Assembly (NCBI GenBank): GCA_052035525.1
Contig: JBPOHN010000035.1
Span: 7,135 to 71,134 of the forward strand
Source of the DNA: Armatimonadota bacterium
GTDB lineage: Bacteria; Armatimonadota; UBA5829
DNA: 64,000 bases
Direction of reading: 5' to 3'
Shown: positions 2,631 through 62,189 of the stretch, piece after piece
How positions within the stretch are numbered: the first letter of the stretch is position 1
Layout: every line of letters starts with the position of its first letter
Notes under the pieces: generated by a model
What the model saw: the letters and a program-made list of their open reading frames with translations, nothing else
Told to the model about the DNA's origin: nothing
Database searches by the model: none
Made by a program: the position numbers and the translations under genes

Positions 2631-4991
2631 TCAGTCGTAATACAGCATCATCGGACCGACGAAGACGGCGCCTTTGGCTTCCGCGCCACCGACATTGTCC
2701 AGTAGAAACACCGTGTCCCATCTGATGGGATAGGCCATTCGCCCATCGTTCTTTCCGCCCCAATGGCCCGCTACTTTGCCCGTCATATCAGCTTCCAGGC
2801 AGCGCCAATCGCTGAAGTTGAGCGTGCCGAAATCGGGCTGGAAAGTCTGATCGCCTGAATCTATGACTCGCAGCCGCCCAGCCCCGTTGCCGCCATCGCC
2901 CTTCACCCAGATCCTCGCCCGGGACGGCTGTTCCACGATCGGCACCGGGATTCCGTGCGTCACGCGCACGAACTTCCAGCCGTTGCCGAAGGAGTAGTCC
3001 AGCTTCGCGCATACCTCGGCGGGAGCACCGCCGGGAGCTTTGCAGTAGGTCAGCTTCGCATCAGCCGGCACCTTGGGATCGCCATCGAGCTTCACCGCAT
3101 ATTTCAGAACCACCTCACCTGGCTTTCCATCGGCGAAGGACTCGACCAGCGAATAGCGCTTTGCAGGCATGCTGATGACATTACCGCCATCTGCATCCAC
3201 CAGCCTGCAGGAGAATGCAAACAACACGGATGGCCGGAGGGTGCACTTGAAGCGAGCGAGCGCCTGCGTCTGGCCCGCGGCGAGCGTGACCGGGACGGTG
3301 GTCTTCTCGAACTGGATCCCCTGCGGATTGCCGATGGTCACGCTTCCCTTGAACGGCTCTTTGGCGATGTGCTCCGGCCTGCGAACCTCGACGATGATCT
3401 CCCGCCCGGCTGAGGGCAGCACTTCAAGCCTGGGACACTCGGAGGCGTCCACTTCGACCACACGAACAAGCGGCTCCTTGAGGCCGTCGAGCTTCAGCGT
3501 TACCGTTACAACCGGCGCCGATTGCCCGGCATACCTGTAGGGAACCGACGCGCCGTCACCAGAGGACTCCAGGGCCCCATTCTCAACGCCTGCGCCGGAC
3601 ACAGTGACGACTCCGCCCTCACTCGCGCTGGAGTTGACCTTGAGCATCAGGCCTTCTTTTGTCACCTCCGCCCTGGCGTCCACGTCCCACGCAGCCTCGG
3701 CCGCCCAGCGGGCGCTCTTGCCGAGAGGCTCGATGTACTGCGGGGATTGGGTCAGCTTAAGCGCCAGCTTGCCGTCCTTCACCTGCGCTTTGGTTCGCTC
3801 GCCCGAGCGAGAGACGATCTCGACTTCCTCTACGTCCAGCGGCAGGGATATGGTGTGCGGATCGGCCGTCGTCCAGGCTGCCAGGCGGTAGTCGTCGCCC
3901 TTCTTGAACAGCGCCAGGTAGTCTTCATCACTGCCGAAGCGGATTCGGTTAGCGTAGGAGTAGCCGTTCAGCTCGGTTGTGAGCGTATTCATTGCGTGGA
4001 AGGCAGGTTTGGGGTCCATGTTCTGTCGGACCGTGCCGAATCGGTGCTCGTTTTCGTTCGGATCGGGGCCGTCATCCCGCCAGTCATACCAGATGTTGAT
4101 ACGGCAGCGGTTCATCATGTTTGACAGCGCCTGCCGCGCGATGTAGTCCGCCTGGGTTTCCTCGGAAACGCCCTTGGTGAACGTGGAGTAGCCCCATTCG
4201 CCGCTTACAATCTCGTATTGCCGGCCCTTAGGCGCGTATTGGGCGATGAACTGCCGGAGCTTCATGTAGCGGTCCGCGGCATCCTCGGGCTTGCTGCAGC
4301 CGTAGGGATGGACCGAGATGACGTCGCAGTTCTCGAGCAGCCCCAGCTTGAACGCCTTCTCCAGGAAGCCCAGATCGACGCCCGACGTGGCGGGAGCAAG
4401 GAGAAGGCTGTCAGGGTCGGCTTTCTTCAGCGCGGGATAGACGACTTTGGCGAGCTTGACGTAGTCCTCAACGTTCGGTTGAGGCCGCCAGAAAAAGATG
4501 TTGGGCTCGTTCCAGAGTTCCCATACGACGCCTTTGCCCTTGAAGTGCGCCACCCCGGCGGTGACGAACTTCACGAACGCCGCCCTGCCCTCGTCAGTGT
4601 GCGGGGCCATGTCGTTATCGTAGAGCGGATTGCCGTAGTCGAGGATGAAGTAGGCGCGGATACCCTTGGTTGCAAGGGAGTCCACAAGCTCATCATACTT
4701 GCTGAAGTCGTAAACGCCCTTCTCGCGCTCGATATGCACCCACGAGAAGTCCATGCGAATGAACCGGAATCCTTCCTCGGCGATTTTCGCCACCTGCTCA
4801 GCTTCAGTGCCCGTGAAGTGGATGTTCACCCCAAGGCAGTCAGGGACTCTAAGCGCAGGCAGCGCAGAGCCATCCCGAGGCGGCAGCCCGAAAACACCCT
4901 GAGCCTGTCGAAGGGCGCTTCCGGCATCTGCCGCATAACTTGCCGTGGATATGAGCACCATCAATATCAACACCCCCAGGAGCCTGGTCAT
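2631..4991 (-). CDS. Secreted clan GH-A glycoside hydrolase (GH5-like) with long C-terminal beta-rich extension
   Basis: Signal peptide present. TIM-barrel motifs are FIRMDFSW, VWELWNEPN (acid/base Glu) and SGEWGYST (nucleophile Glu). It lies 16 nt upstream of the beta-helix gene on the same strand. Confidence 0.7.
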   Translation of the reverse strand: MTRLLGVLILMVLISTASYAADAGSALRQAQGVFGLPPRDGSALPALRVPDCLGVNIHFTGTEAEQVAKIAEEGFRFIRMDFSWVHIEREKGVYDFSKYDELVDSLATKGIRAYFILDYGNPLYDNDMAPHTDEGRAAFVKFVTAGVAHFKGKGVVWELWNEPNIFFWRPQPNVEDYVKLAKVVYPALKKADPDSLLLAPATSGVDLGFLEKAFKLGLLENCDVISVHPYGCSKPEDAADRYMKLRQFIAQYAPKGRQYEIVSGEWGYSTFTKGVSEETQADYIARQALSNMMNRCRINIWYDWRDDGPDPNENEHRFGTVRQNMDPKPAFHAMNTLTTELNGYSYANRIRFGSDEDYLALFKKGDDYRLAAWTTADPHTISLPLDVEEVEIVSRSGERTKAQVKDGKLALKLTQSPQYIEPLGKSARWAAEAAWDVDARAEVTKEGLMLKVNSSASEGGVVTVSGAGVENGALESSGDGASVPYRYAGQSAPVVTVTLKLDGLKEPLVRVVEVDASECPRLEVLPSAGREIIVEVRRPEHIAKEPFKGSVTIGNPQGIQFEKTTVPVTLAAGQTQALARFKCTLRPSVLFAFSCRLVDADGGNVISMPAKRYSLVESFADGKPGEVVLKYAVKLDGDPKVPADAKLTYCKAPGGAPAEVCAKLDYSFGNGWKFVRVTHGIPVPIVEQPSRARIWVKGDGGNGAGRLRVIDSGDQTFQPDFGTLNFSDWRCLEADMTGKVAGHWGGKNDGRMAYPIRWDTVFLLDNVGGAEAKGAVFVGPMMLYYD

Positions 4992-5007: not shown

Positions 5008-5043
5008 GGTTAGAAGGTTGGAAGGTTCGGAAGGTTGGGAAAG
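5008..5043. repeat. GGTTnGAA octamer tandem run (4 units)
   Basis: Sequence is GGTTAGAA GGTTGGAA GGTTCGGAA GGTTGGGAA. It lies in the divergent intergenic region between the GH5-like gene and the cyclase gene. Confidence 0.7.
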
Positions 5044-6826: not shown

Positions 6827-7165
6827 CTACCCCAACGCTACCTTGCAGCCTTGACGCCGCGAACGTGGCTCGGGGCAGCTAATCCTGATCGGCATATGGA
6901 GCGCGAAGCACACCCGCTTGAGTATCTCGATTGCATTCCCGTGGTAGTCGGCATTCTCGACTCTGGAGATGGTCGCCTGATTGGAGCCTATCAGCTTTGC
7001 AAGATCGGCCTGCGAGAGACCCACACTCTCGCGGAGGTCGTATACGGCCTGGCCGATCTGCATGTTCAACTCCTCCTCGGCCGACATCGCATCCCATCCC
7101 GGAATGCTGCCATACCATTTGTCCATCAACTCGACCACGTCGCTGACTCTCTTATTCCTGCTCAT
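6827..7165 (-). CDS. HigA-like XRE-family HTH antitoxin
   Basis: Internal Met at 7165. HTH segment LRESVGLSQADLAKLIGSNQATISRVEN is typical of XRE/HigA. Confidence 0.65.
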   Translation of the reverse strand: MSRNKRVSDVVELMDKWYGSIPGWDAMSAEEELNMQIGQAVYDLRESVGLSQADLAKLIGSNQATISRVENADYHGNAIEILKRVCFALHMPIRISCPEPRSRRQGCKVALG

Positions 7166-8080: not shown

Positions 8081-8102
8081 GGCGTTACTATTATACAGGT
8101 TT

Positions 8103-8131
8103 GAAGGTCGTAAGGTTAGAAGGTTGGAAGG
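8103..8131. repeat. GGTnnGAA/GGTTnGAA octamer run
   Basis: Sequence is GAAGGTCGTAAGGTTAGAAGGTTGGAAGG, directly upstream of the metallophosphoesterase start. Confidence 0.6.
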
Positions 8132-10728: not shown

Positions 10729-12090
10729 CTATTTCTCGTCCGTGCCGAACAGGTTGTCCTTGATGATTACGTTCTTCTTGGCGTTGTTGACGATCTCTTT
10801 GCTCGAGTAGAACTCGTTGCCGGTGATCATCGCCGAGATAACGTTCTCGCCAATCACCATCGGGGCCTTGCCCGCGGTGCCGATGAAGACGCTGTTCGAT
10901 ATTCCGAGCCTGCCGCCGACGACGTTCATGAACTGCTCGGTCTTGGGCGTGGGGTCGATCGCATAGAACGAGCAGTTGTCGAAGGATACGCGCCCGCGGC
11001 CGTCGATGCGGATCATCTCTTCGGCCTCGATCTTGCCCGACGCGCCGAAGATGCCGCAGGAACTGAACCTGACGGGGCCGATGTTCTTCTCGCTCACGAC
11101 TATACGGCCGAAAATTTGCGAGTTGGAGAAGCTGACTCCCGAGTGGCCCTGCGTTTCCTCGACATAGAGCGCGACATCGCAGCAGTCAGCGCCGCTTTGC
11201 GTCATCAGGTAGTTGCCGGGACCGGGATCGGAGGCTTTCATGAAGTGAATGCCGGTCTTGTAGAGAATCGCAAAGCAGTTGGAGACGTATTCCCAATCGG
11301 ACCTGGCGAAGATGAAGGCAGTGCCGTTCTTGAGAACCCACTCGTCCATCTTAGGGGCCTTGCCGCCGAGGACGTGTCCGGTCCAGAACGGCCAGAAATG
11401 GATGTTTTCGAGCCGCCCGACGTCGAAGCACACGTCGATGAAGAGGCCCTTATACAGCGGCTGGCCGTAGAGATTGCGGATGAAGTGCCTGCCGGCCACG
11501 CGGGTGCCGAAATCGACGCCCTGATAGGGGTTCACGAGGAGGCAGTCGATGATGCTCGTGTTATCTGCTCCGGCGGACGCCACGCACCACGGATATGGCG
11601 TCGGCGGGCCGTCGGGTTTCTGATCGGGATAGTAGATGGTCATGCCCTTCAGCACCGAGTTCGCGTGAAGGAGGATGAACGGCGTACCGTCCGGCTTGCC
11701 CGCGCCTTCGACCGCAAGCAAGACGCTTCCGGAAAGCCAGGTCTTGTCCTCTGAACCCGCCGCCGCATCCTGAGCTTGTCGAAGGGTCGGCGAATGGCTC
11801 TTCACCTTCGTCGGGCACGGCGGAGCCGTCCAGACCCCCTCCAGAGTGACGCAGGCCGGTATGCTGAGGTGGGTCTTGATCATATAGTTGCCCACGGGCA
11901 CGCGGACGATGCCGCCGCCGTCTGCTCCGGCTTCGTCGAGCGCCTTCTGGAACGCGGCGGTATCGTCGGTGACGCCGTCGCCTTTGGCGCCGTAGTCCCT
12001 CACGTTTCTGGCGAAATCACTGGAAGCGCAGGCCGCGAGCGGAAGCAGCGCGACCAGGCAAGCCGCGATGAGTATCTTCGCAAAGCACAA
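10729..12090 (-). CDS. Secreted beta-helix enzyme (pectate-lyase superfamily), paralogue of 929..2614 without the golvesin-like tail
   Basis: Motif DYGAKGDGVTDDTAAF, and collinear similarity to 929..2614 at both protein and DNA level. It lies 9 nt upstream of the 8560..10719 gene. Confidence 0.75.
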   Translation of the reverse strand: MCFAKILIAACLVALLPLAACASSDFARNVRDYGAKGDGVTDDTAAFQKALDEAGADGGGIVRVPVGNYMIKTHLSIPACVTLEGVWTAPPCPTKVKSHSPTLRQAQDAAAGSEDKTWLSGSVLLAVEGAGKPDGTPFILLHANSVLKGMTIYYPDQKPDGPPTPYPWCVASAGADNTSIIDCLLVNPYQGVDFGTRVAGRHFIRNLYGQPLYKGLFIDVCFDVGRLENIHFWPFWTGHVLGGKAPKMDEWVLKNGTAFIFARSDWEYVSNCFAILYKTGIHFMKASDPGPGNYLMTQSGADCCDVALYVEETQGHSGVSFSNSQIFGRIVVSEKNIGPVRFSSCGIFGASGKIEAEEMIRIDGRGRVSFDNCSFYAIDPTPKTEQFMNVVGGRLGISNSVFIGTAGKAPMVIGENVISAMITGNEFYSSKEIVNNAKKNVIIKDNLFGTDEK

Positions 12091-15147: not shown

Positions 15148-15215
15148 GTTAGAAGGTTTTGAAGGTTAGAAGGTTGGAAGGTTAGCAAGACACATCCTTC
15201 TAACCTTCCGACCTT
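15148..15215. repeat. Octamer repeat run folding into a 16-bp hairpin between convergent genes
   Basis: A run of GTTAGAAGG TTTTGAAGG TTAGAAGG TTGGAAGG TTAG. Positions 15170-15185 pair with 15200-15215 (15/16). Confidence 0.6.
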
Positions 15216-16812: not shown

Positions 16813-16977
16813 CGGCAGGACCTCCACTATATCAACTACATCAGTAAGGCGGCAAATGTTCCCTCAAGCCAGTGTCGGGGGGTACGGAGGCAGTATACCC
16901 ATCGGGAGTCCGGGGTGTCAAATGCGCACCAGGCAAGACTTGGCATGCAACCACGGATGGGGTACAATCCGAGTGCT

Positions 16978-17454
16978 ATGGTCACCATGGACAGCATACG
17001 CGAATTCAGCCGACGGCTGGCGACAGAGTTTCACCCGGAGCGGATTGTCCTGTTCGGGTCTTACGCTTCAGGCACCCCCACGTCCGATTCTGACGTCGAT
17101 CTACTCGTCGTAATGCCGTTCGAGGGTAAGCCAGTCAACCAGTCCGTAGAGATGAGAGTCCGACTGCGGCCTAAGTTCGCGGTTGACCTGATCGTGCGCA
17201 CCCCGCAAGCAGTCCAGCAGCGGCTGGAGATGGGTGATCCGTTTATGCGTGACGTGCTTCGTGACGGAAAGGTGCTCTATGAAGCCGAACCGACCTGGGA
17301 GCTATCGCGGGTGGACTCGGCATATCTTTCGGACTTCGCGGTGGCTTTTCGCTATCCCGGCGAGGCAGCAGACAAGGAATCCGCACTTGATGCTCACCGC
17401 CGCTGCCGTGCATTTCGCTCAGTAGCGCGCACCGCATTCAAGCTACCCCTCTAG
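16978..17454 (+). CDS. Minimal nucleotidyltransferase (MNT antitoxin-like) fused to the C-terminal end of a HEPN domain
   Basis: LFGSYASGTPTSDSDVDLLVV is the GSx10DxD NTase motif. The C-terminal 55 aa (LSDFAVAFRYPGEAADKESAL...) match only the tail of HEPN domains, with no Rx4-6H motif. Confidence 0.6.
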   Translation: MVTMDSIREFSRRLATEFHPERIVLFGSYASGTPTSDSDVDLLVVMPFEGKPVNQSVEMRVRLRPKFAVDLIVRTPQAVQQRLEMGDPFMRDVLRDGKVLYEAEPTWELSRVDSAYLSDFAVAFRYPGEAADKESALDAHRRCRAFRSVARTAFKLPL

Positions 17455-18879
17455 CCTCTGCACAAACCACTCCATCGCCTGCCTCGCCTTCTCGATCTTG
17501 AGCTCCTTGCGGTCGCGCTTGTGGTGCTTTTCGGTGAGCTCAGGCAGGATGCCGAAGTTGGAGTTCATAGGCTGGAAGTCGTCGATTGGGCAGCTGGCCA
17601 CATAGTCCACAAGCGCCCCGAGGATCGTTTCCTTCGGCGGCACGACCGGCTCCTCTCCCAGGGCAACCCTCGCGGCGTTGATTCCCGCGAGTATCCCAGA
17701 CGCGGCGGATTCCATATAGCCCTCAACGCCCGTAAGTTGCCCTGCGAAGAACAGACCTCTGCCTCCCCCCTTGCCAAGGGACGCCAGGCCCTTCCTTCCC
17801 CCCTTGCGAAGGGGGGACACAGGGGGGTCTGGACGCAAGTGCAGCGCCGGGGTCAGCAGATTCGGCGAGTCGATGTAGGTGTTGCGATGGACGGCGCCGT
17901 AGCGCACGAACTCCGCGTGCTCCAGGCCGGGGATCATTCTGAACACCCGTTCCTGCTCCGACTGCCTGAGCTGAGTCTGAAACCCGACCAACCCGTAAAC
18001 GCTGCCCTCGGTGTTCTCCTGCCGGAGTTGGACGACCGCATGAGGCCGCCTACCTGTGTGAGGGTCCGTCAATCCGACGGGCTTCATCGTGCCGTGAGCA
18101 AGCGTATCCCTGCCGCGCCGGGCGATCTCCTCGACGGGCATACATCCCTCGAAGTAGGCCCTGCCGCATCCTGAGCCTGTCGAAGGGTCGCCGGCAACGC
18201 GCTCCTCCTCCAGGTGCAGGTGCGCGATCTTGGCCTCAAGCAGCGCATCGATAAACGCTTCGTACTCCTCGCGGGTCATCGGGCAGTTGATGTAAGCCGC
18301 CTCGCCCTTGTCGTAGCGAGACTGCCGGAAGACCTTGCTCTGATCAATGCTGTCGTACTCGACCGAGGGCGCGATCGCGTCGAAGAAGTGCAGGTGCTGC
18401 GCGCCAGTCAGGTTCTTGATGCTCTCCTCGAGCGCAGGCGAAGTGAGCGGCCCCGTTGCAATGATGCACGGCACGATCTCCCCTTCATTCGTAACTAGTG
18501 ATTCGTAACTCGTGACTTCTTCCCTGATCACCTCGATCAACGGATTACCCTCAACGGCTTCGGTGACAAGGTCGGCGAAGCGCTCCCTATCCACGCACAG
18601 CGCGTCCCCGCCGGGGACGGCGGCCTTCGCGGCGCAGTCGAGGATGATCGAACCCAGCCGCCTCATCTCCTCCTTCAGCAGCCCGTGCGCCGTGCCGGGC
18701 GAGTTGGACTTGAGGGAACTGGAGCATACGAGTTCCGCGAGCTTGCCCGACCTGTGCGCGGGCGTCATCACATTCGGCCGCATCTCATACAGCTTGGCGC
18801 GAATCCCGCGCTTTGCTATCTGAAAAGCGGCCTCGCATCCCGCAAGCCCACCGCCGATGATGATCACTTCATCTGCCAT
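17443..18879 (-). CDS. trmFO: Methylenetetrahydrofolate-tRNA-(uracil54-C5)-methyltransferase
   Basis: Motifs VIIIGGGLAGCEAA, IATGPLTS, FAGQLTGVEGYMESAASG. The Met at 18879 is the preferred start. Confidence 0.9.
   Translation of the reverse strand: MADEVIIIGGGLAGCEAAFQIAKRGIRAKLYEMRPNVMTPAHRSGKLAELVCSSSLKSNSPGTAHGLLKEEMRRLGSIILDCAAKAAVPGGDALCVDRERFADLVTEAVEGNPLIEVIREEVTSYESLVTNEGEIVPCIIATGPLTSPALEESIKNLTGAQHLHFFDAIAPSVEYDSIDQSKVFRQSRYDKGEAAYINCPMTREEYEAFIDALLEAKIAHLHLEEERVAGDPSTGSGCGRAYFEGCMPVEEIARRGRDTLAHGTMKPVGLTDPHTGRRPHAVVQLRQENTEGSVYGLVGFQTQLRQSEQERVFRMIPGLEHAEFVRYGAVHRNTYIDSPNLLTPALHLRPDPPVSPLRKGGRKGLASLGKGGGRGLFFAGQLTGVEGYMESAASGILAGINAARVALGEEPVVPPKETILGALVDYVASCPIDDFQPMNSNFGILPELTEKHHKRDRKELKIEKARQAMEWFVQRLEG
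17757..17833. repeat. Two G/C-stem hairpin repeat units inside trmFO
   Basis: CCCTTGCCAAGGG (17768-17780) and CCCCCC-TTGCGAA-GGGGGG (17798-17816). They encode PPVSPLRKGGRKGLASLGKGGGRG. Confidence 0.7.
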
Positions 18880-19269
18880 ATCACGGAGATTATACCAAAG
18901 AACTGTCCCCCAACCATAAACCCTCAATCCTCATGCCGTCTTTCGCTCGTGAACAACATTTAACTGAAGTTTCAATCTTTCGATGTACAGAAATGGCCTT
19001 CTCGCCGTCTTATAATTATGGGGGACAAATGTCTACGCAACACATCCGGCCCCGGCTTCCGCGCCTCCCGGAGTCTGTTTTCTCAGATAACATATGCTGT
19101 GCGCCAGGCGGCCCGCTCCTTTCCAAGAGGCTTGAGGGAGGTCAGAAAACGGGCGCGGGTCAGACTTCGCTGTTCTGCTTCCCGATTGGAACCTTCTGCG
19201 ATATAATAATCGTCTATACACAAACACCAGATCGGGATCGTGTGACCACACTTTGAAGGAGGGGCTAGA

Positions 19270-20799: not shown

Positions 20800-20832
20800 G
20801 CATTTGCAATTTGCAGTCTGCAATTGACAATC

Positions 20833-27104: not shown

Positions 27105-27785
27105 TCAGAATGACGCAGCCAGCAGTGCCCTCGCCTTTTGCAGCGCCTTGCCCCTGTGAGAGATCGCGTTCTTTTCCTCGGCTGTGAGTTCAGCCATGTG
27201 CTTGCCGAGTTCGGGGACGTAGAAGACTGGATCGTAGCCGAAGCCGTGGGTTCCTCTGGGCTCGCGGGCGATCAGGCCTTCGACAGAGGCTTCGCAGGTC
27301 TTTACCCCCCCTGCCCCCCCCTTCGTAAGGGGGGGGATAGGCTGGGATTCGGCCTTCGTAAGGCGGGGGACTCGTTGCGGTTCCCCGCTTGTAAGGGAGC
27401 GGGCTCGCTGGGGTTCGGCGATGGCTATCGCGCAGCGGAAGCGGGCGGTGCGCTTCTCGTCAGGGACATCTCTCATCAGACCGAGGAGTTTCGAGTTGCG
27501 CTCCGCATCGGTGGGCGCGAAGCGGCTGGATAACACTCCGGGGGCGCCTTCGAGGGCGTCCACTTCCAGGCCGGAGTCGTCCGCGAGCGTCAGTTCTCCA
27601 GTGAATTCGGCGTAGGCAGTCGCTTTCAGGATCGCGTTTTCGATGAAAGTGCTGCCGGTCTCCTCTACGTCGGGTGCCTCGGGGTAATCGGCGAGCGAAA
27701 CGACCTCATACGGCAGATCGGAAAGCAGAGCCGCGACCTCCCTTGCTTTGCCAGCATTCTTTGTGGCTATGACGAGTCTTTTCAT
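27105..27785 (-). CDS. rdgB: Non-canonical purine NTP pyrophosphatase (RdgB/HAM1) with repeat-derived insertion
   Basis: Motifs VIATKNAGKAREV, DDSGLEVDAL and GFGYDPVF. Confidence 0.85.
   Translation of the reverse strand: MKRLVIATKNAGKAREVAALLSDLPYEVVSLADYPEAPDVEETGSTFIENAILKATAYAEFTGELTLADDSGLEVDALEGAPGVLSSRFAPTDAERNSKLLGLMRDVPDEKRTARFRCAIAIAEPQRARSLTSGEPQRVPRLTKAESQPIPPLTKGGAGGVKTCEASVEGLIAREPRGTHGFGYDPVFYVPELGKHMAELTAEEKNAISHRGKALQKARALLAASF
27314..27416. repeat. Three tandem G/C-stem hairpin units inside rdgB
   Basis: C8-TTCGTAA-G8 (27314-27336), GCCTT-CGT-AAGGC (27352-27364) and CCCGCT-N8-AGCGGG (27384-27403). The spacers end in GGATTC or GGTTC. Confidence 0.75.
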
Positions 27786-34760: not shown

Positions 34761-35816
34761 TCAGGCAACGCTGAGAGCGGTGAGCAGATCGCCGAGGTTT
34801 GTGGCCATGAACTCGACCGCGCTGACGGCGCGGCGGTAGTCCATTCTGGTGGGGCCGAGGATACCTATTGTGCCTGCGGGCTTGCCGGCAATCCTGTAAC
34901 GAGTGCCTACGAAGCTGCAATCGCGCATTTCCTCGATCGGGTTCTCCTCGCCGATGATGACCGAGACCTCAGGGCCCAGATACACCGACGAGAACAGCTT
35001 GTAGAGGGCGCTGCGCTCCTCGAGGACCGAGAGAACCGCCTCAAGCCGGCGGGCGTCCCGGAACTCCGGCTGTTGCACGATATAGCCCGTGCCCTCGGTG
35101 GTTACGTCGGCCTGATCGGCTGCCTCGAACTCGCGCCTGAGGCACTCTATCACCTTGCCGAGCAGTTCCTTCAAGTCGGCACGGTCATCTTCCGAAGTGC
35201 TCAACGAGACGACGGATTCAACCGTCTGGCCGTCCAGTAACGACATCAGGTAGTTGGTCGCGGTGAGAGGGTCGAGCTTCTGTGACTCGGACGAAAGCTC
35301 CACGAACTCATGGAACACCTGCCCGTTGTCGAGCACCAGCAAAGCAAGGAGCTTCCCCTGCCCTACACGCGCGATGCTGGCGTGGCTGACCTTGACGTCG
35401 CGTACCACCGGGTGCGTCGCTACGGATGCATAACGGGCGAGGTCGGACAGAATGCGGCAGGTCTGCTCCAGGATCACGTCCATCTCCGTCCGCCTTGGAG
35501 ACAGCTTGCTCTTCACCGTCTCAGCTTCATTGCGCGCGAGCCGCGTCGGCTGCATAAGGCGGTCAACGTAGAACCGGTAGCCGCGATCCGAGGGGACTCT
35601 TCCGGCGGAAGTGTGCGGCTGGCGGAGGTAACCGAGCTCCGCAAGCTCTGCCATTTCATTGCGAATCGTGGCGGACTTCACACCGAGGGAGTAGTGGGCC
35701 ATAAGCGTATGGGAACCGACCGGCTCAGCGGTTCGCACGTAGTCGGTCACTACTGCTTTGAGTATGACTTGCTTGCGGTCATCGATGGGAGTAATCGGGT
35801 CGCGTTTCACTTCCAT
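34761..35816 (-). CDS. hrcA: Heat-inducible transcription repressor HrcA
   Basis: The winged-helix N-terminus EPVGSHTL...SATIRNEMAELAELGYLRQPHTSAGRVPSDRGYRFYVD is diagnostic. Confidence 0.9.
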   Translation of the reverse strand: MEVKRDPITPIDDRKQVILKAVVTDYVRTAEPVGSHTLMAHYSLGVKSATIRNEMAELAELGYLRQPHTSAGRVPSDRGYRFYVDRLMQPTRLARNEAETVKSKLSPRRTEMDVILEQTCRILSDLARYASVATHPVVRDVKVSHASIARVGQGKLLALLVLDNGQVFHEFVELSSESQKLDPLTATNYLMSLLDGQTVESVVSLSTSEDDRADLKELLGKVIECLRREFEAADQADVTTEGTGYIVQQPEFRDARRLEAVLSVLEERSALYKLFSSVYLGPEVSVIIGEENPIEEMRDCSFVGTRYRIAGKPAGTIGILGPTRMDYRRAVSAVEFMATNLGDLLTALSVA

Positions 35817-35881: not shown

Positions 35882-35996
35882 GGCGTGCCGGCCAGGGCGA
35901 ACGCGTGAAGGGTGAACGCGGAACCACGGAATCGGTGAAACACCGAAATCGGAGGCCAGGTCCTCCTGCTGGAAGGAAGGGGAGCATTGTGACTTG

Positions 35997-36013
35997 CCCC
36001 CTTGCGAAGGGGG
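35997..36013. repeat. Solo G/C-stem hairpin repeat
   Basis: CCCCC-TTGCGAA-GGGGG in the hrcA / Lon-like intergenic region. Confidence 0.7.
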
Positions 36014-36138
36014 ACTGAGGGGGATGGCTCGGGACCAACGGTGCTGCCGAGAGCAGACTTGGAGGAAGCGGTGTGCAGTTTCTGGCTTGCATACGGGCGG
36101 GTAAAGCAGTTCTAGACGCTTTGAGGAGTGAGCAAGAC

Positions 36139-38598
36139 ATGGCTATCAACCACCTTACATACGATCAGCTAAGCCACACCTGCAATCCCGACGACCTGGG
36201 TTTCGAGACTACCGCCGATCTCTCGCCGCTGGACGTGACCCTGGGACAGGAACGGGCCGTCAGCGCCCTCGACTTCGGTCTGGACATCGAGGCGCCCGGC
36301 TTCAACCTCTACGTCGCAGGCAGGTCCGGCACCGGAAGGAACTCCAGCGTGCTGCAGCACACGTCCACAAAGGCAAAGGGCGAAAAGCGGCCTGACGACT
36401 GGTGCTACGTATACAACTTCAACGATCCCTACCGCCCGCGAACAATCCGGCTGTCATCCGGCAAGGGGCCGGAGTTCGCCGCCGATATGGACGAGTTCAT
36501 CAAGAGCGCTCGCACGGAGATGCCACGCGCGTTCGAGAGCGAGAACTACGAGAAACGAAAGAACGAAATCCTGGAGACGATCCAGCACAGACGAGAGGGT
36601 ATGCTCGCCGAACTGCAGCGAGACGCCGCCGATCTTGGGTTTTCCATCGAGGCGACGCCGGTTGGCATTGCGTCCGTGCCTCTCACTCCCGACGGCCGGC
36701 CGTATACGCGAGATGAGTATGACGCCCTGTCCGATGAGATCAAGAACGACATAAAACAGCGGGGACAGAGGCTGCAGGAAAGCACCAACCAGTTCGTCTC
36801 GCGCTCCAGAGCGCTGGAGAAGGAGGCACAGGAGAAGCTGCGCGATCTGGACAAAGAGATCGCCCTCTTCGCCGTTGGTCACCTTCTGGAGGATCTGCGT
36901 GAGAAGTACCAGCGCTGCGAGGGGTTCGGGAACTGCGATGACATCCTGGACTACCTCAACTGCGTTGAGAAGGATATGGTCGAGCACCTTGATGATTTCC
37001 GAACGCCGGACAGGCACCAGCAGGGGATTCCTCCTGTTATGGCCGAGATGGTGGAACCGGCATTCGACAGGTATCGCGTCAACGTCTTCGTCACCCACAA
37101 AGACCGAGACGGCGCGCCGGTCGTGCAGGAGAACAACCCGACTTACATGAACCTGCTGGGCAAGATAGACTTCAAGGCGCGCTTCGGCTTCATGACCACC
37201 GACCACAATATGCTCAAGCCGGGGGCCATTCATCGCGCGAACGGCGGGTATCTGATCGTCCAGGCGCTGGACGTGCTTCTGAGTCCATTCTCCTGGGACG
37301 GTCTGAAACGGGTGATGCGGGCCAGGGAAGCGGCGCCGGAGAACCTTGCCGACCAGTACGGTCTGGTGGCCGTGTCCACGATCAGGCCTCAGGCAATACC
37401 TCTGGACGTGAAGGTGATCATGGTCGGCAGCCCGTTCCTCTACTATCTGCTGTACTATCTGGACGAGGACTTCCGGAAGCTCTTCAAGGTCCGGGCCGAT
37501 TTCGACATCGAGATGGCGCGGGACGAGAAGCACACCGCCCAATACGCCGCGTTGGTGTCGCTCAAGTGCAAGGAACTCGGCCTGAAACCATTCACCAAGG
37601 AAGCCGTGGCTAAGGTGATCGACTACGGCTCCAGGATCATAGAGGACAAGAACAGGCTGTCAGCGCGGTTTCTTGATATCTCCGATATGGTGATCGAGTC
37701 GGCCCACTGGGCAGACCGCGCAGGCAGTGATACCGTCAGGCTGGAGCACGTCGTCCAGGCGCTGGAGCACAAAGAGTATCGTTCTCGAATGATAGAAGAC
37801 AAGGTCCAGGCGCTGATCGAAGAGGGCGTCATAATGATCGACACCACGGGCGGCGTTGTCGGGCAGGCCAATGCGCTTTCGGTCTATGACCTCGGCGACA
37901 GGTCCTTTGGCAGGCCATCCAGGGTGACCGCCCGAGTCGCTGTGGGACGCGGAAAGCTGATAGATATCCAGCGCGAGAGCGAGATGGGGGGCCGAATCCA
38001 CAGCAAGGGCGTGATGATCCTCACTGGCTACCTGGACGGCAAGTATGCAACGGACAAGCCAATAGCGATGGTGGCTACCCTGGCGTTCGAGCAGTTGTAT
38101 GAGGAAATCGAAGGGGATTCCGCTTCCAGTACCGAGCTTTACGTGCTGTTGTCCGCTCTATCCGCCCTGCCGATCAATCAGGAGATAGCGATCACGGGCT
38201 CCGTCAACCAGTTCGGCCAGATTCAGCCAGTTGGCGGCATCAATGCCAAGATAGAGGGGTTCTACGAGGTGTGCAAAGCCAGGGGGCTGACCGGAAATCA
38301 GGGAGTAGCGATACCATCCGCGAACGTCCGGCACCTTATGCTCAAGCCCGAGGTCGCCGACGCGGTCAGAGACGGAAAGTTCCACGTGTGGGCGCTCGAT
38401 ACCGTTGACGATGGCGTGGAACTGCTGATGGGTGCTCCGGCGGGCGAACGGCAGGAGGATGGGACGTATCCCGAAGGCACGGTGCACTACCTTGTGGACA
38501 GGAGGCTCCGCCAGCTTGCCGACGCCGCCAAGGAGTTCGCCGTACCACCGCCTCTGCCGGCCGGCACCGATCGGACCGAGCCGGCCGCAAGGATATAG
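36139..38598 (+). CDS. Lon-like protease with AAA+ domain carrying a long helical insertion (YcbZ/LonH-like)
   Basis: Walker A GRSGTGRNS. A long coiled insertion. C-terminal Lon S16 domain (GDSASSTELYVLLSAL, ITGSVNQFGQIQPVGGINAKIEGF). ATG at 36139 follows GAGGAG. Confidence 0.8.
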   Translation: MAINHLTYDQLSHTCNPDDLGFETTADLSPLDVTLGQERAVSALDFGLDIEAPGFNLYVAGRSGTGRNSSVLQHTSTKAKGEKRPDDWCYVYNFNDPYRPRTIRLSSGKGPEFAADMDEFIKSARTEMPRAFESENYEKRKNEILETIQHRREGMLAELQRDAADLGFSIEATPVGIASVPLTPDGRPYTRDEYDALSDEIKNDIKQRGQRLQESTNQFVSRSRALEKEAQEKLRDLDKEIALFAVGHLLEDLREKYQRCEGFGNCDDILDYLNCVEKDMVEHLDDFRTPDRHQQGIPPVMAEMVEPAFDRYRVNVFVTHKDRDGAPVVQENNPTYMNLLGKIDFKARFGFMTTDHNMLKPGAIHRANGGYLIVQALDVLLSPFSWDGLKRVMRAREAAPENLADQYGLVAVSTIRPQAIPLDVKVIMVGSPFLYYLLYYLDEDFRKLFKVRADFDIEMARDEKHTAQYAALVSLKCKELGLKPFTKEAVAKVIDYGSRIIEDKNRLSARFLDISDMVIESAHWADRAGSDTVRLEHVVQALEHKEYRSRMIEDKVQALIEEGVIMIDTTGGVVGQANALSVYDLGDRSFGRPSRVTARVAVGRGKLIDIQRESEMGGRIHSKGVMILTGYLDGKYATDKPIAMVATLAFEQLYEEIEGDSASSTELYVLLSALSALPINQEIAITGSVNQFGQIQPVGGINAKIEGFYEVCKARGLTGNQGVAIPSANVRHLMLKPEVADAVRDGKFHVWALDTVDDGVELLMGAPAGERQEDGTYPEGTVHYLVDRRLRQLADAAKEFAVPPPLPAGTDRTEPAARI

Positions 38599-38626: not shown

Positions 38627-39292
38627 TTACCAGTAGAAGGTGACGTTCTCCTTCGAGGTGAGTACCTTCATCTGACCCCACCACTTCCACTTCGCGTGTC
38701 CGTCATTGTAGATGTAATTCGCGCCCACAGGCACGGCTCTTGGCGGATGGCTGTTGAAGTGGTGCGGCTTGCCGTCCGTAGTTGTCACGGCGATATCGGA
38801 TAGCAGCAGCGAGTAGGGATACTGGCCCGAATTGACGGCAATCTCCTTACGCGTAAGGCCGTAGCCCAGGTAGTTGCCCCAGTAGCTGTAACCGGCCCAG
38901 TAGGTGTAGGCGGAGCTTCCAGCAACCCAGTAGGGAGGGCTCTTGAAGAAGAGATTGCTGGGGCAGAAAAACACTTTGACATTCTTCACGTAGGGGTTGA
39001 GGGCCCGCAGGCCCAGGTTCAATGGCTGGGTCGTTCCCCACGGAGGCCTTATGTCCCAATCCCCCCAGGGCCAGTTTTCTAGACGAGCGGGAGGATAGAA
39101 ACCGTTGTTCAGATCAGCGTAGGCATGAGCCGCAAGGCCTAGCTGCTTCAGGTTGCTCAGGCACTTTGAACGTCTGGCATTCTCCTTGGCCTGCATAAAC
39201 GTCGGGAACAATATCGCGGCCAGAATCGCGATGATCGCGATCACCACCAGGAGCTCGATAAGAGTAAAGCCAAAACGTCGTCTGAGTATCAT
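38627..39292 (-). CDS. Prepilin-type N-terminal methylation domain protein, DUF1559 / H-X9-DG type
   Basis: [23 protein letters not shown] at the N-terminus when starting at Met 39292. C-terminal ..[18 protein letters not shown]. Confidence 0.8.
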
Positions 39293-39419
39293 AGCTGCAT
39301 CCCCCCACGACCGGCCAGTACTCGGTAGAGTGGTCCCTGATGTTACAATACCCAACCGAGCAGCCGTTGTCAAGGGCTGGCAGGAGTTTGCGGCGCATGT
39401 GGGAAACTCTCTATTCAGT

Positions 39420-40322
39420 ATGAAAGGCGTATACGATTGTGAGATTATCGAGCAGCGCGAGGTGTCGCCTGGTGTGTATCGCACACTGCTGACGGGTGGG
39501 GAGATCGCGCGGGAGTCCGTGGCGGGCCAGTTCGTGAACCTGCAGGTATCGCCGACGACTGATCCACTCCTGCGCAGACCGTTTTCCGTCCACGCGGTCT
39601 ACCCGGAGAGGGGCGTCTACTCGCTGCTTTATGTTGTTGTGGGGCGCGGGACGCAGCTACTTCGGCAGATTCCAGCGGGAGAGAAGGTGAGCGTGGTAGG
39701 GCCGCTGGGACGAGGTTTTGGCCTCGGAGACTCCCCCGATGATGAGCACATTGTGGTAGCCGGCGGATGCGGGGCCGCTCCACTGCACTTCCTCTGCGAT
39801 GCGCTCTGCGACAAGTGGGGCTGCGAGAAGGTGACGGTCCTCGCGGGCGGCAGGAGCAAGAATGCGGTCCTCTGCGAAGCTGAGTTCCGGGAGCACGGAG
39901 TAGAAGTGGGCGTCGCTACAGACGATGCCAGCTACGGCTACGCCGGATTCGTAACCCAACTGCTGGAGGAGCAATTACGAAGTACGAATTGCGAATTACA
40001 GAGAATTCGTGTCTACTCCTGCGGGCCGCATGCCATGATGCGCGAAGTCGCCCGGATCTGTCACGAGGCCGGAGTCGCAAGCTGCCAGGTATCGCTCGAG
40101 AACAACATGGCCTGCGGCCTTGGCGTGTGCGTCGGCTGCGTTCAGAAGATCAGGGGAGCCGAGAGCTCGAAGTCGAAAGTCGAAAGTCACCAATGCACGT
40201 GCGCAGGTGGTCCCGACAATGATCAATGCGTAACAATCAATCATGAAACTGAGGCGTGGCACTACGAACGGGTGTGCACGGATGGGCCGGTTTTTGATGC
40301 GGAGGATGTGATATGGGAGTAA
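39420..40322 (+). CDS. pyrK: Dihydroorotate dehydrogenase electron-transfer subunit
   Basis: RRPFSV FAD motif and GPLG NAD motif. [2Fe-2S] Cys pattern C-X4-C-X2-C...C. The track's upstream extension is antisense to the pilin-like gene. Confidence 0.85.
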
Positions 40323-58692: not shown

Positions 58693-58727
58693 CAGGCGGA
58701 ACGCAAGGTCCGAATAACCTCCCCCGG

Positions 58728-58808
58728 CCCCTCCTTCGTAAGGAGGGGAGAACCGAGATTTCCCTTAAGTAAGAGGAGACAATCTTAGCTCCCGCCTTGC
58801 GAAGGGGG
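58728..58808. repeat. Intergenic array of three G/C-stem hairpin units (30-33 bp period)
   Basis: CCCCTCC-TTCGTAA-GGAGGGG (58728-58748), a degenerate TCCCTTAAGTAAGAGGA (58761-58777), and CCCGCC-TTGCGAA-GGGGG (58791-58808). Confidence 0.7.
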
Positions 58809-58993
58809 ATGAAGGGGGGTTCCCGCAAGCTGCCATTACGTTCCCCGTGGAAGCTCCTCCATAGGTAATGGCCATTCATCGTTGGACGTATTACACTTGG
58901 ATCACATTCCGCGCGGGTGGATTCGGCTGCGCAGCTTCGGATCGATTCGAGGGCGGAGGCCTGGCAACCAATCTCTAAGAATTTCTGCTGATC

Positions 58994-60915: not shown

Positions 60916-61434
60916 ATGAGGAAGTATGACGAACCGGGGTTGGTGGAGGCGGTGATAGAGATCCCTGCCGGCGCGCGCAATAAGTATGAGTACGATGCCG
61001 AGCGCCGGGTCTTCCGGCTCGACCGCGTCCTTTACTCCTCCGTGCACTATCCGACCGACTACGGCTTCATCCCGAACACGCTCGCGGAGGACGGCGATCA
61101 TCTGGACATACTGGTGATCGTCGGGGAGCCCACATTCCCCGGCTGCCACGTGCCCGCGAGGCCGATCGGGGTGCTGGATATGATGGACGTGAACGGCGAG
61201 GACCAGAAGATTCTGGCGGTGCCGGTTGGCGACCCGCGGTTCGCTGAGGTGCGGGATATCGACGACCTATCGCCGCACTGGCTGCGCGAGATCGAGAACT
61301 TCTTTGCGACCTACAAGACCCTGGAGGACGTCGCAACCACCATGCGCGGGTGGGACCACCGGGACCGCGCGCTCCAGATCATATCAGAATGCACCGCCCG
61401 CTGCGCCGCAGCGACCGCGTGCCCCAAGACCTAA
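60916..61434 (+). CDS. ppa: Inorganic pyrophosphatase (family I)
   Basis: Motifs EIPAGARNKYEYD, YPTDYGFIP and DGDHLDILV. The Met at 60916 is preferred. Confidence 0.9.
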   Translation: MRKYDEPGLVEAVIEIPAGARNKYEYDAERRVFRLDRVLYSSVHYPTDYGFIPNTLAEDGDHLDILVIVGEPTFPGCHVPARPIGVLDMMDVNGEDQKILAVPVGDPRFAEVRDIDDLSPHWLREIENFFATYKTLEDVATTMRGWDHRDRALQIISECTARCAAATACPKT

Positions 61435-61453
61435 CATCTCCCGTTCCCACACC

Positions 61454-61462
61454 TGTTATAAT
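61454..61462 (+). promoter_or_regulatory. Extended -10 promoter element for engB
   Basis: TGTTATAAT lies 20 nt after the ppa stop and about 37 nt before the engB GTG. Confidence 0.4.
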
Positions 61463-61498
61463 AGAGCCGCTGCAGCAGCCAGCACGGGAGAGACTACA

Positions 61499-62098
61499 GT
61501 GCGCGTGACCGCGGAATTCGTGAAGAGCGTTGCGAAAATGGACCAGTTGCCCAGGGAGCGCCTGCCGGAGATCGCGCTCGTCGGGCGGTCGAACGTCGGC
61601 AAATCGTCGCTCATCAACACCCTCACCGGCAACTCGCGTCTCGCACACACGTCGAACAAGCCCGGCCGGACGCAGACGCTGAACTACTACCTGATCAAGC
61701 CAGAGGGCGGCAGACCCTTCTACCTTGTGGATATGCCGGGCTACGGCTACGCGGCGATCAACAAGGTCGTCCGGGGCGAGTGGGAGGAACTGATCGGCCG
61801 CTATGCGACTTCGCGCGAGCAGCTATGCGGGATCATCCAGCTAATCGACCTCCGCCACCCGCCGCAGCCGCTCGACCACGACGTATCACAGTGGCTCCAG
61901 GCTCACGACCAGAACGTGCTCGTTGTCGGCACCAAGGCTGATAAGATCGCCAAGACCAAAGTCCCCGAAGCGATGCTGCAGGTGGCCGAGAAGCTCAACA
62001 TCGACTCCCGCGACACGCTCGCCTTTTCCGCCCAAACCGGCTTCAATAAGGACAAGGTGTGGGGTTGGATTCTCGAGGCAACAGGCAACAGGGGATAG
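61499..62098 (+). CDS. engB: Ribosome-biogenesis GTPase YsxC/EngB
   Basis: G1 motif GRSNVGKSSLIN, G3 motif DMPGYG, G4 motif TKADK. GTG start at 61499 follows GGGAGAG. The track's upstream extension overlaps ppa out of frame. Confidence 0.85.
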   Translation: MRVTAEFVKSVAKMDQLPRERLPEIALVGRSNVGKSSLINTLTGNSRLAHTSNKPGRTQTLNYYLIKPEGGRPFYLVDMPGYGYAAINKVVRGEWEELIGRYATSREQLCGIIQLIDLRHPPQPLDHDVSQWLQAHDQNVLVVGTKADKIAKTKVPEAMLQVAEKLNIDSRDTLAFSAQTGFNKDKVWGWILEATGNRG

Positions 62099-62162
62099 CT
62101 CTCCCCCCGAGGCGCAGTGGGTTTGGGGGAAGTCGTTACGGATCCCTCCGACCCCACCCCAG

Positions 62163-62185
62163 CCCTCCCCTTCGTAAGGGGAGGG
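62163..62185. repeat. Solo G/C-stem hairpin repeat between convergent genes
   Basis: CCCTCCCC-TTCGTAA-GGGGAGGG. Confidence 0.7.
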
Positions 62186-62189
62186 AGCA

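Follow-up and report, generated by a model that had tools for sequence, protein, structure and literature searches.

Heptanucleotide tandem repeats known as STRR occur in cyanobacteria, where they are described as intergenic. The TAACTGA heptanucleotide repeats of Beggiatoaceae are described in the same way in the sections cited here (PMC4679880). Other short repeat families are reported from within protein-coding genes. Rickettsia palindromic elements (RPEs) lie in frame in genes, according to the review passages cited (Ogata et al. 2000, 2002, as reviewed in PMC10969869 and PMC3184786), and a brief account of the BRE repeats of Bordetella and other betaproteobacteria describes about nine protein genes with internal inserts that keep the frame (Hot et al. 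2011, cited in PMC3184786). Intragenic REPs tagged with GTAG/CGTC encode 20-30 residues in genes for known proteins, including RNA helicases, tRNA synthetases and an entry that begins 'tRNA pseudouridine', and some open reading frames (ORFs) have two inserts at separate sites, as stated in the sections cited (Di Nocera et al. 2013, PMC3733652). Here we examine trmFO, a tRNA-modification gene in a 64,000-nt stretch (the window) of an Armatimonadota bacterium (assembly GCA_052035525.1, contig JBPOHN010000035.1, forward-strand positions 7,135 to 71,134), which carries in-frame repeat inserts at three sites, A, B and C. A reading by a model that saw only the DNA letters and an ORF list (the sequence-only reading) had pointed out these inserts and offered either very active repeat spread or strong selection for in-frame, loop-located insertions as the cause. 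We consider it quite probable that active spread of several short repeat families, combined with purifying selection for in-frame, stop-free copies in tolerant loops, accounts for them.

Judged by its sequence, the window trmFO is an intact, strongly conserved gene, and its product is predicted to have m5U54 methyltransferase activity. The 478-aa protein, the same as database entry P0001, matched the NCBIfam TrmFO equivalogs over its full length (NF003739, 602.5 bits, cut-off 262; TIGR00137, 566 bits, cut-off 428.65), and the three features were found where the sequence-only reading had placed them, with the peptides it quoted and the ORF intact. Its statement that Thermus TrmFO has none of these segments was also borne out. 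The window protein aligned with Thermus thermophilus (Tth) TrmFO (Protein Data Bank (PDB) entry 3g5q; E 4e-122) with only three internal gaps, of 8, 12 and 22 residues, located between Tth T129 and V130, K216 and L217, and E327 and A328, which are exactly sites A, B and C (Table 1). The FEGC motif of the window protein aligns with Tth C223 in the same alignment. Cys52 and Cys246 (C53 and C247 of the aligned sequence), together with the GGGLAG motif at G10-G15, were invariant among 34 aligned relatives. The two cysteines can be equated by motif position with Cys53 and Cys226 of B. subtilis TrmFO, whose catalytic roles have been described (PMC4081110). A codon alignment with relatives gave an amino-acid identity of 83-85%, far above the third-codon-position identity of 56-65%, which points to purifying selection on trmFO. 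The trmFO DNA was 100% identical in six assemblies with different run/sample accessions (L081-L086), so an assembly artefact is excluded, and this identity suggests one widely sampled, nearly clonal population. Assembly GCA_964391295.1 carries this trmFO.

The three sites differ in their repeat content. On the coding strand, site A reads ACGAGTT ACGAATC ACTAGTT ACGAATG. The sequence-only reading had reported it as a 14-bp tandem duplication, ATTCGTAACTAGTG/ATTCGTAACTCGTG, at 18487-18514; a duplication is present there (Tandem Repeats Finder (TRF), period 14, 2.1 copies, 93% matches), but the segment is better read as four diverged heptamers that are shared with sister lineages. Site B holds GCATCCTGAGCCTGTCGAAGGGTCG at 18166-18190 within a family-2 core spanning 18163-18190, with a possible flanking 5-bp stem, TGCCG/CGGCA, at 18162-18166 and 18192-18196. 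For site C, two G/C hairpin units had been described, and both exist: CCCCCCTTGCGAAGGGGGG is exact at 17798-17816, and the second hairpin is degenerate. The description fell short in extent, since the full features are two 33-nt units that flank the original Lys-Gly codons. Unit 2 was observed in the window only, among the 34 aligned relatives. In an AlphaFold 2 (AF2) model built from 34 sequences, whose best PDB matches were TrmFO structures (3g5q, E 1e-42), the per-residue confidence score (pLDDT) was below 50 in site B (residues 223-241) and in unit 1 of site C (residues 355-362) and ~73-80 around site A, and all of these segments were mostly coil. The low confidence at inserts B and C agrees with loops without proving them. 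Candidate peptides that span the trmFO inserts are GLASLGK and VAGDPSTGSGCGR.

To the question of whether the repeats recur outside trmFO, the window gave a clear answer: all three families were found elsewhere in it. Family 1 consists of a hairpin, whose 7-10-bp C/G-run stem encloses a TTNNNAA centre, followed after 2-5 nt by another G-run. The element totals ~29-34 nt, and the hairpin is present at six or more places in the 64 kb. Allowing up to 3 mismatches, CCCCCCTTGCGAAGGGGGG matched the window 9 times where 0.05 matches were expected; four lie in trmFO and five at four other loci, the matches outside trmFO being near 27316 (both strands), 35996, 58729, 58791 and 62165. Family 2 is a ~30-nt element around the core CCTGAGCYTGTCGAAGGG with three window copies. 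Its second copy, at 11765, has 1 mismatch (0 expected) and is 96% identical over 28 nt at 11762-11789, and the 18-nt core recurs a third time with 18/18 matches. The heptamer of site A was also identified by TRF in pyrK.

The window is ~89% coding by a GC3-based gene map, and four other genes in it (rdgB, pyrK, a pectate-lyase-like gene and a GH5 gene) carry in-frame copies, so trmFO is not special here. At the loop that holds its family-1 units, the window RdgB is ~30 residues longer than E. coli RdgB (1k7k). In Armatimonadota relatives this loop either has 0, 1 or 3 PPLTKGG units or is filled by unrelated inserts; it is a second hot spot. Near its C-terminal Fe-S cysteine motif, the window PyrK has ~30 residues more than L. 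lactis PyrK (1ep3_B). The in-window paralogue of the pectate-lyase-like gene, at 929-2614, is without the 23-aa segment that holds the family-2 copy. A short-range inverted-repeat scan of the window found no further hairpin family, and an Rfam search of the whole window found no family at gathering scores.

We then asked how the segments are distributed among orthologues. A multiple alignment, which the sequence-only reading had proposed as its check, showed that they are not generally conserved and that close relatives have empty sites. The alignment comprised 114 near-full-length relatives, down to 53% BLASTP identity. Mostly-gap blocks, termini aside, were confined to sites A, B and C, where they follow residues 126, 228/229 and 351, respectively. 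Sequences expanded by 4 residues or more numbered 9 at site A, 5 at site B and 32 at site C, and only the window protein and P0002 were expanded at all three. Site C has its modal length in 77 of the relatives. Where it is filled, many of the peptides are unrelated to one another: PPLSPPNKGG, VSGFERSGNPET (family 4), GEGRGEG, GLCASPSAARRPRTT, or 7-residue periodic TRNLQPE or LNLEPET. Close relatives, with 58-87% identical TrmFO, hold other families at the trmFO sites, some of them nested. Several inserts per gene, which the sequence-only reading had found unusual, are unusual for bacteria generally and ordinary in this genome and clade.

Many close TrmFO homologues were obtained from the protein search (lengths ~434-501 aa), and the DNA of eight alleles with 78-84% BLASTP identity was retrieved for codon-level comparison. 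Synteny around trmFO, with a HEPN/nucleotidyltransferase gene pair and a TPR gene, is mostly conserved in these eight. A separate contig scan with TrmFO gave, among the matches listed, relatives of at most 54% identity (best aligned segment) and no empty-site alleles. The site A array is common to the window, P0002, P0003, P0004, P0008 and P0020, and the site is empty in P0006, P0007 and P0012. Site A is thus comparatively old, being common to sister lineages. Cleaner versions exist in relatives: in P0008 the array comprises (ACGAGTT)x3 and then ACGAATG, and in P0002 the units are of the ACGAATT type. The region is longer in P0020. Of the 9 alleles compared, 7 are empty at site B (EEEKDAKYFEGC). 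The site B insert of P0002 is another one, four GCGGAAT heptamers with an apparent family-2 remnant (CGGACAAGCTCA), and the window insert may descend from one shared with P0002. Site C is empty (GAC|AAGGGC) in P0008, P0012 and P0020, while P0006 has a single 33-nt insert of a diverged family-1 type (PPISPPNKGGG) at the unit-1 position. Unit 1 of P0002 differs from that of the window by one base over the first 30 nt; at the unit-2 position, P0002 has an unrelated family-4 hairpin with a 12-bp stem, GTTTCGGGATTT...AAATCCCGAAAC, read as VSGFERSxNPET. The three trmFO inserts differ in age. No precursor of the inserted sequence was seen in empty alleles, and the frame was kept, with no stops, in all inserts of the window and its relatives.

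P0003, P0004 and P0007 also carry family 4 at site C. In P0004 (L090 10990-11130), an opposite-orientation family-2 copy (PELVEG) is nested in the family-4 hairpin. Two ~22-nt copies of the left arm (GTTTCGGGATTTGARCGYAGYG) flank the nested copy and could represent either a long duplication of the target or a partial element that has become nested. The family-4 hairpin and GCGGAAT arrays were also found in the flanks of relatives' trmFO loci. Family 4 (GTTTCGGGATTT-loop-AAATCCCGAAAC) is common in the trmFO site C and the intergenic DNA of relatives, and it has no copy in the window.

Family 2 extends well beyond this clade. Its core CCTGAGCYTGTCGAAGGG was found in at least 120 metagenome contigs with G+C contents of 0.33-0.73 (loci L095-L174). 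A flanking stem of at least 5 bp was present at 23 of 122 copies, compared with a mean of 7.2 and a maximum of 16 for permuted partners, and an inverted partner lay within 200 nt at 24 of the 122. There was no Rfam match in 15 metagenome loci with family-2 copies, and neither family 1 nor family 2 was found in 80 unrelated, mostly Firmicutes, trmFO loci. These data hint at an element that is broadly distributed across phyla, in which the 18-nt core is conserved and the flanking stems vary.

It was observed directly that the segments are repeats, that they are present in some lineages and absent from others, that they are restricted to three sites and that the gene is intact. From this we propose the following history. 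Several short repeat families would have spread by insertion or expansion all over the genome, through transposition, templated repair or slippage. Copies would have entered trmFO at different times and been translated as part of the protein. Purifying selection would remove those that shift the frame, bring in a stop or disturb the fold; the survivors in a conserved enzyme would be in-frame, stop-free copies in a few tolerant loops. TrmFO would have three such internal loops, all of them occupied in the window lineage. The two causes that the sequence-only reading had set out as alternatives are both supported and are not exclusive. Active spread is supported by the recurrence in the window, the other families in relatives and the four other window genes, and selection for in-frame, loop-located insertions by the confinement of indels to three sites in 114 relatives with the frame and the cysteines kept. 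Most likely the inserts themselves are passengers that contribute little or no function, and they are probably neutral.

The reading frame carries much of this argument. Because the frame was kept at every independent event, and skipped or excised inserts need no frame, the ribosome would appear to read through the inserts. A heptamer array cycles through all three frames and therefore persists only as multiples of three units, with no stop in seven codons. (AATTACG)n is stop-free, and its complement, (CGTAATT)n, runs into a TAA within 21 nt whichever frame is read. Both genic AATTACG-type arrays, in trmFO and pyrK, are in the stop-free orientation. Translational bypass (byp-like), an intron and an intein were considered and rejected: the inserts are in frame and stop-free, have no Rfam intron match and are too short for an intein. 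At the DNA level, similarities between elements and target flanks (CTTCGA, 6 nt, at site B; AAGGG, 5 nt, at site C) were within chance expectation. Insertion may be preferred next to existing repeats, and a permissive loop explains the site C composites equally well.

Several points weigh against the combination of spread and selection. The census of repeats is based on the 64-kb window and ~100 kb from relatives. No transposase or RAYT was detected by Pfam in 40 of the 51 predicted window ORFs (the other 11 include trmFO, rdgB and pyrK, which were identified otherwise), no insertion machinery was found in the ORFs scanned in the 64 kb, and the inserts showed no clear target-site duplications. 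Translation of the inserts is predicted from frame conservation, and the structural model that bears on the loops is only moderately confident (mean pLDDT 76.7, TM 0.55-0.62 to 3g5q). Site B ends four codons before the catalytic Cys246, and given this proximity the insert may affect TrmFO activity.

Other explanations were weighed on the same data. An undescribed insertion process that targets hairpin-forming or repeat-bearing DNA, with these inserts as its footprint, could diversify the loops of housekeeping proteins across Armatimonadota. The spread of family 2, the composite or nested inserts at one loop across lineages and the ~22-nt duplication in P0004 are compatible with it, and we regard it as rather unlikely. 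It is improbable that the inserts are adaptive loop extensions, for example a Lys/Arg/Gly-rich site C peptide (PLRKGGRKG...GKGGGRG) adding tRNA-binding surface under positive selection. That peptide is indeed basic and glycine-rich, and the three-insert allele is unchanged in six samples. However, its sequence is dictated by a DNA repeat that is also found in intergenic DNA and rdgB, and relatives have acidic or neutral unrelated peptides, or nothing, in the site C loop, which is of modal length in 77/114. The near-identity of unit 1 between the window and P0002 (one base in 30 nt), where 35% of third positions differ gene-wide, speaks for the idea, yet it is not significant (9/10 third positions identical against 0.65 expected, p ~0.09). 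A local origin, by replication slippage or duplication of trmFO sequence rather than from genome-wide families, strikes us as distinctly improbable. Slippage does in general lengthen and shorten heptamer arrays, and the unit sequence and number at site A vary (three perfect units in P0008, a longer region in P0020), but the site A heptamer is also present in pyrK 21 kb away, families 1 and 2 occur at unrelated loci, with the family-2 core in at least 120 metagenome contigs, and no forerunner of the inserts is seen in the empty alleles.

We would give very little weight to a role at the nucleic-acid level, either as mRNA hairpins that modulate translation or stability or as heptamer phase-variation switches for trmFO. 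The two site C units were predicted to pair as one long RNA hairpin of -46.5 kcal/mol, the intergenic cluster at 58720-58825 folds with z -4.0, and a change of one heptamer would shift the frame. Despite its stability, however, the site C hairpin reaches a z of only -1.7 because of base composition, and the folds of sites A and B are no better than shuffles (z +2.0 and +0.5). Rfam gave no match in support: the sole hit on trmFO was a chance-level whalefall-1 (15.5 bits against 37, E 0.9). The array at site A has decayed into four unlike units, and its length is the same in all six assemblies. A phase-variable contingency locus was rejected as a candidate in its own right, since a long, near-perfect, polymorphic array would be expected and four diverged units with zero differences among the six assemblies were seen. 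That trmFO is an assembly artefact or a decaying pseudogene is hardly credible. The source is metagenome-assembled and repeats can mis-assemble, but the gene is identical in six assemblies from different runs, its frame is intact, its catalytic residues are invariant, it bears a strong signature of purifying selection, and relatives from other samples have orthologous inserts.

A number of further features were observed around these loci. The ORF at 16915-17454 (+) overlaps the trmFO 3' end by 12 nt, and its sole domain is a nucleotidyltransferase (MNT-type). Most of the relatives examined have separate HEPN (128 aa) and nucleotidyltransferase (103-125 aa) genes at this position, and the HEPN partner in the window seems to have been lost or fused. 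Octamer arrays, (GGTTGGAA)n, are present at 5008-5038, 8097-8131 and 15148-15185, apparently outside genes. The one at 5008 starts 17 nt upstream of the GH5 start codon, while that at 15148 has a 19/20 reverse-complement match at 15196-15215 with which it could pair as a hairpin between convergent genes. Two more heptamer arrays were noted, (ATTTGCA)x3.4 at 20802-20825, three bases past the IMPDH stop codon, and (AGGCAAC)x2.4 at 62076-62092, at the 3' end of the ORF 61226-62098.

Table 1. Coordinates of trmFO, its inserts and related repeat copies (window positions unless a locus of a relative is named; net size is relative to empty alleles)
Feature	Position	Strand	Net size (nt)	Description
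trmFO CDS	17443..18879	minus		478 aa, intact; ATG 18877-18879; listed ORF 17443-18927
Site A	18486..18514	minus	+21	decayed heptanucleotide array, encodes TSYESLVTNE; net size equals three heptamers
Site B	18157..18201	minus	+33	variable segment encoding RVAGDPSTGSGCGRA; replaces 12 nt (KDAK) of empty alleles
Site C unit 1	17794..17826	minus	+33	33-nt family-1 element (C-run, spacer, 8-bp G/C hairpin) encoding PPVSPLRKGGR
Original Lys-Gly codons AAGGGC	17788..17793	minus		empty-site codons, between the two site C units; empty alleles GAC|AAGGGC|YTS
Site C unit 2	17755..17787	minus	+33	degenerate 33-nt family-1 unit encoding LASLGKGGGRG; 3-mismatch hairpin 17765-17783
rdgB family-1 units	27304..27410	minus		gene 27105-27785; three in-frame units, PQRARSLTSGE / PQRVPRLTKAES / QPIPPLTKGGAGG
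pyrK heptamer arrays	39973..39999	plus		gene 39153-40322; (AATTACG)x3.9 in frame; (AAGTCGA)x2.7 at 40170-40188
Family-2 copy in pectate-lyase-like gene	11762..11789	minus		gene 10729-12090; in frame, read as TLRQAQD
Family-2 core in GH5 gene	4898..4915	minus		gene 2631-4991; in frame just past the signal peptide, read as ALRQAQG
Intergenic family-1 copy	35996..36025	plus		hairpin then G-run; between ORFs 34761-35816(-) and 36073-38598(+)
Intergenic family-1 cluster	58729..58822	both orientations		RNA fold (58720-58825) -56.6 kcal/mol, z -4.0
Intergenic family-1 copy	62157..62186	minus		between convergent genes
Family-4 copies in relatives	L087 3237-3271, 6136-6170; L091 6734-6827; L092 4410-4444; L093 10997-11031			

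These inserts matter beyond the single gene. Natural insertions of this kind map permissive loops, in TrmFO three internal ones, which is useful for tag engineering and structural work. They also add to the variation in protein length and give rise to spurious "hypothetical" peptide motifs in databases. In metagenome-assembled genomes they can lead alignment, gene calling and the prediction of domain boundaries astray. In the papers searched, for the repeat DNA and the peptide motifs among other things, neither these families nor such inserts in Armatimonadota were described. The repeat families are thus apparently undescribed and the phylum apparently new for a phenomenon whose kind is itself established.

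Among the described systems, the heptamer arrays resemble STRR and the Beggiatoaceae repeats in being short arrays of 7-nt units dispersed over many genome loci. They differ in that the arrays here lie in coding sequence (CDS), where their unit number is a multiple of three and their translation gives peptides with a 7-residue period, and in that the unit sequences are not the same. Family 1, a short imperfect G/C palindrome in many copies, is like REPs, which are 20-40-bp G/C-rich hairpins often found as dimers or clusters. Unlike REPs, the family-1 copies are without a GTAG/CGTC tag where their flanks were read (only 62157-62186 has a nearby GTAG), no RAYT is in view among the window ORFs scanned, and about half of the loci are in CDS, whereas REPs are mostly intergenic. 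The BRE repeats share the character of a repeat family with internal in-frame inserts; they belong to another phylum and are a different element, compared here by description only. The closest likeness in kind is to the RPEs, selfish repeats that lie in frame in unrelated housekeeping genes, are translated and have been judged compatible with fold and function, with several families per genome and copies in both genes and intergenic DNA. The window inserts have the RPE-like trait of a dispersed repeat family present in frame in a conserved ORF and absent from its orthologues. Where RPEs are ~105-150 bp with long palindromic arms and come from an obligate intracellular alphaproteobacterium, the units here are 21-35 nt, come from a free-living Armatimonadota and include non-palindromic heptamers. 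Given size and taxon, and with RPEs compared by description only, homology to RPE-1 to RPE-10 is unlikely. "Selfish DNA inside protein-coding genes", best known from Rickettsia, would thus operate in free-living Armatimonadota too, with far smaller elements.

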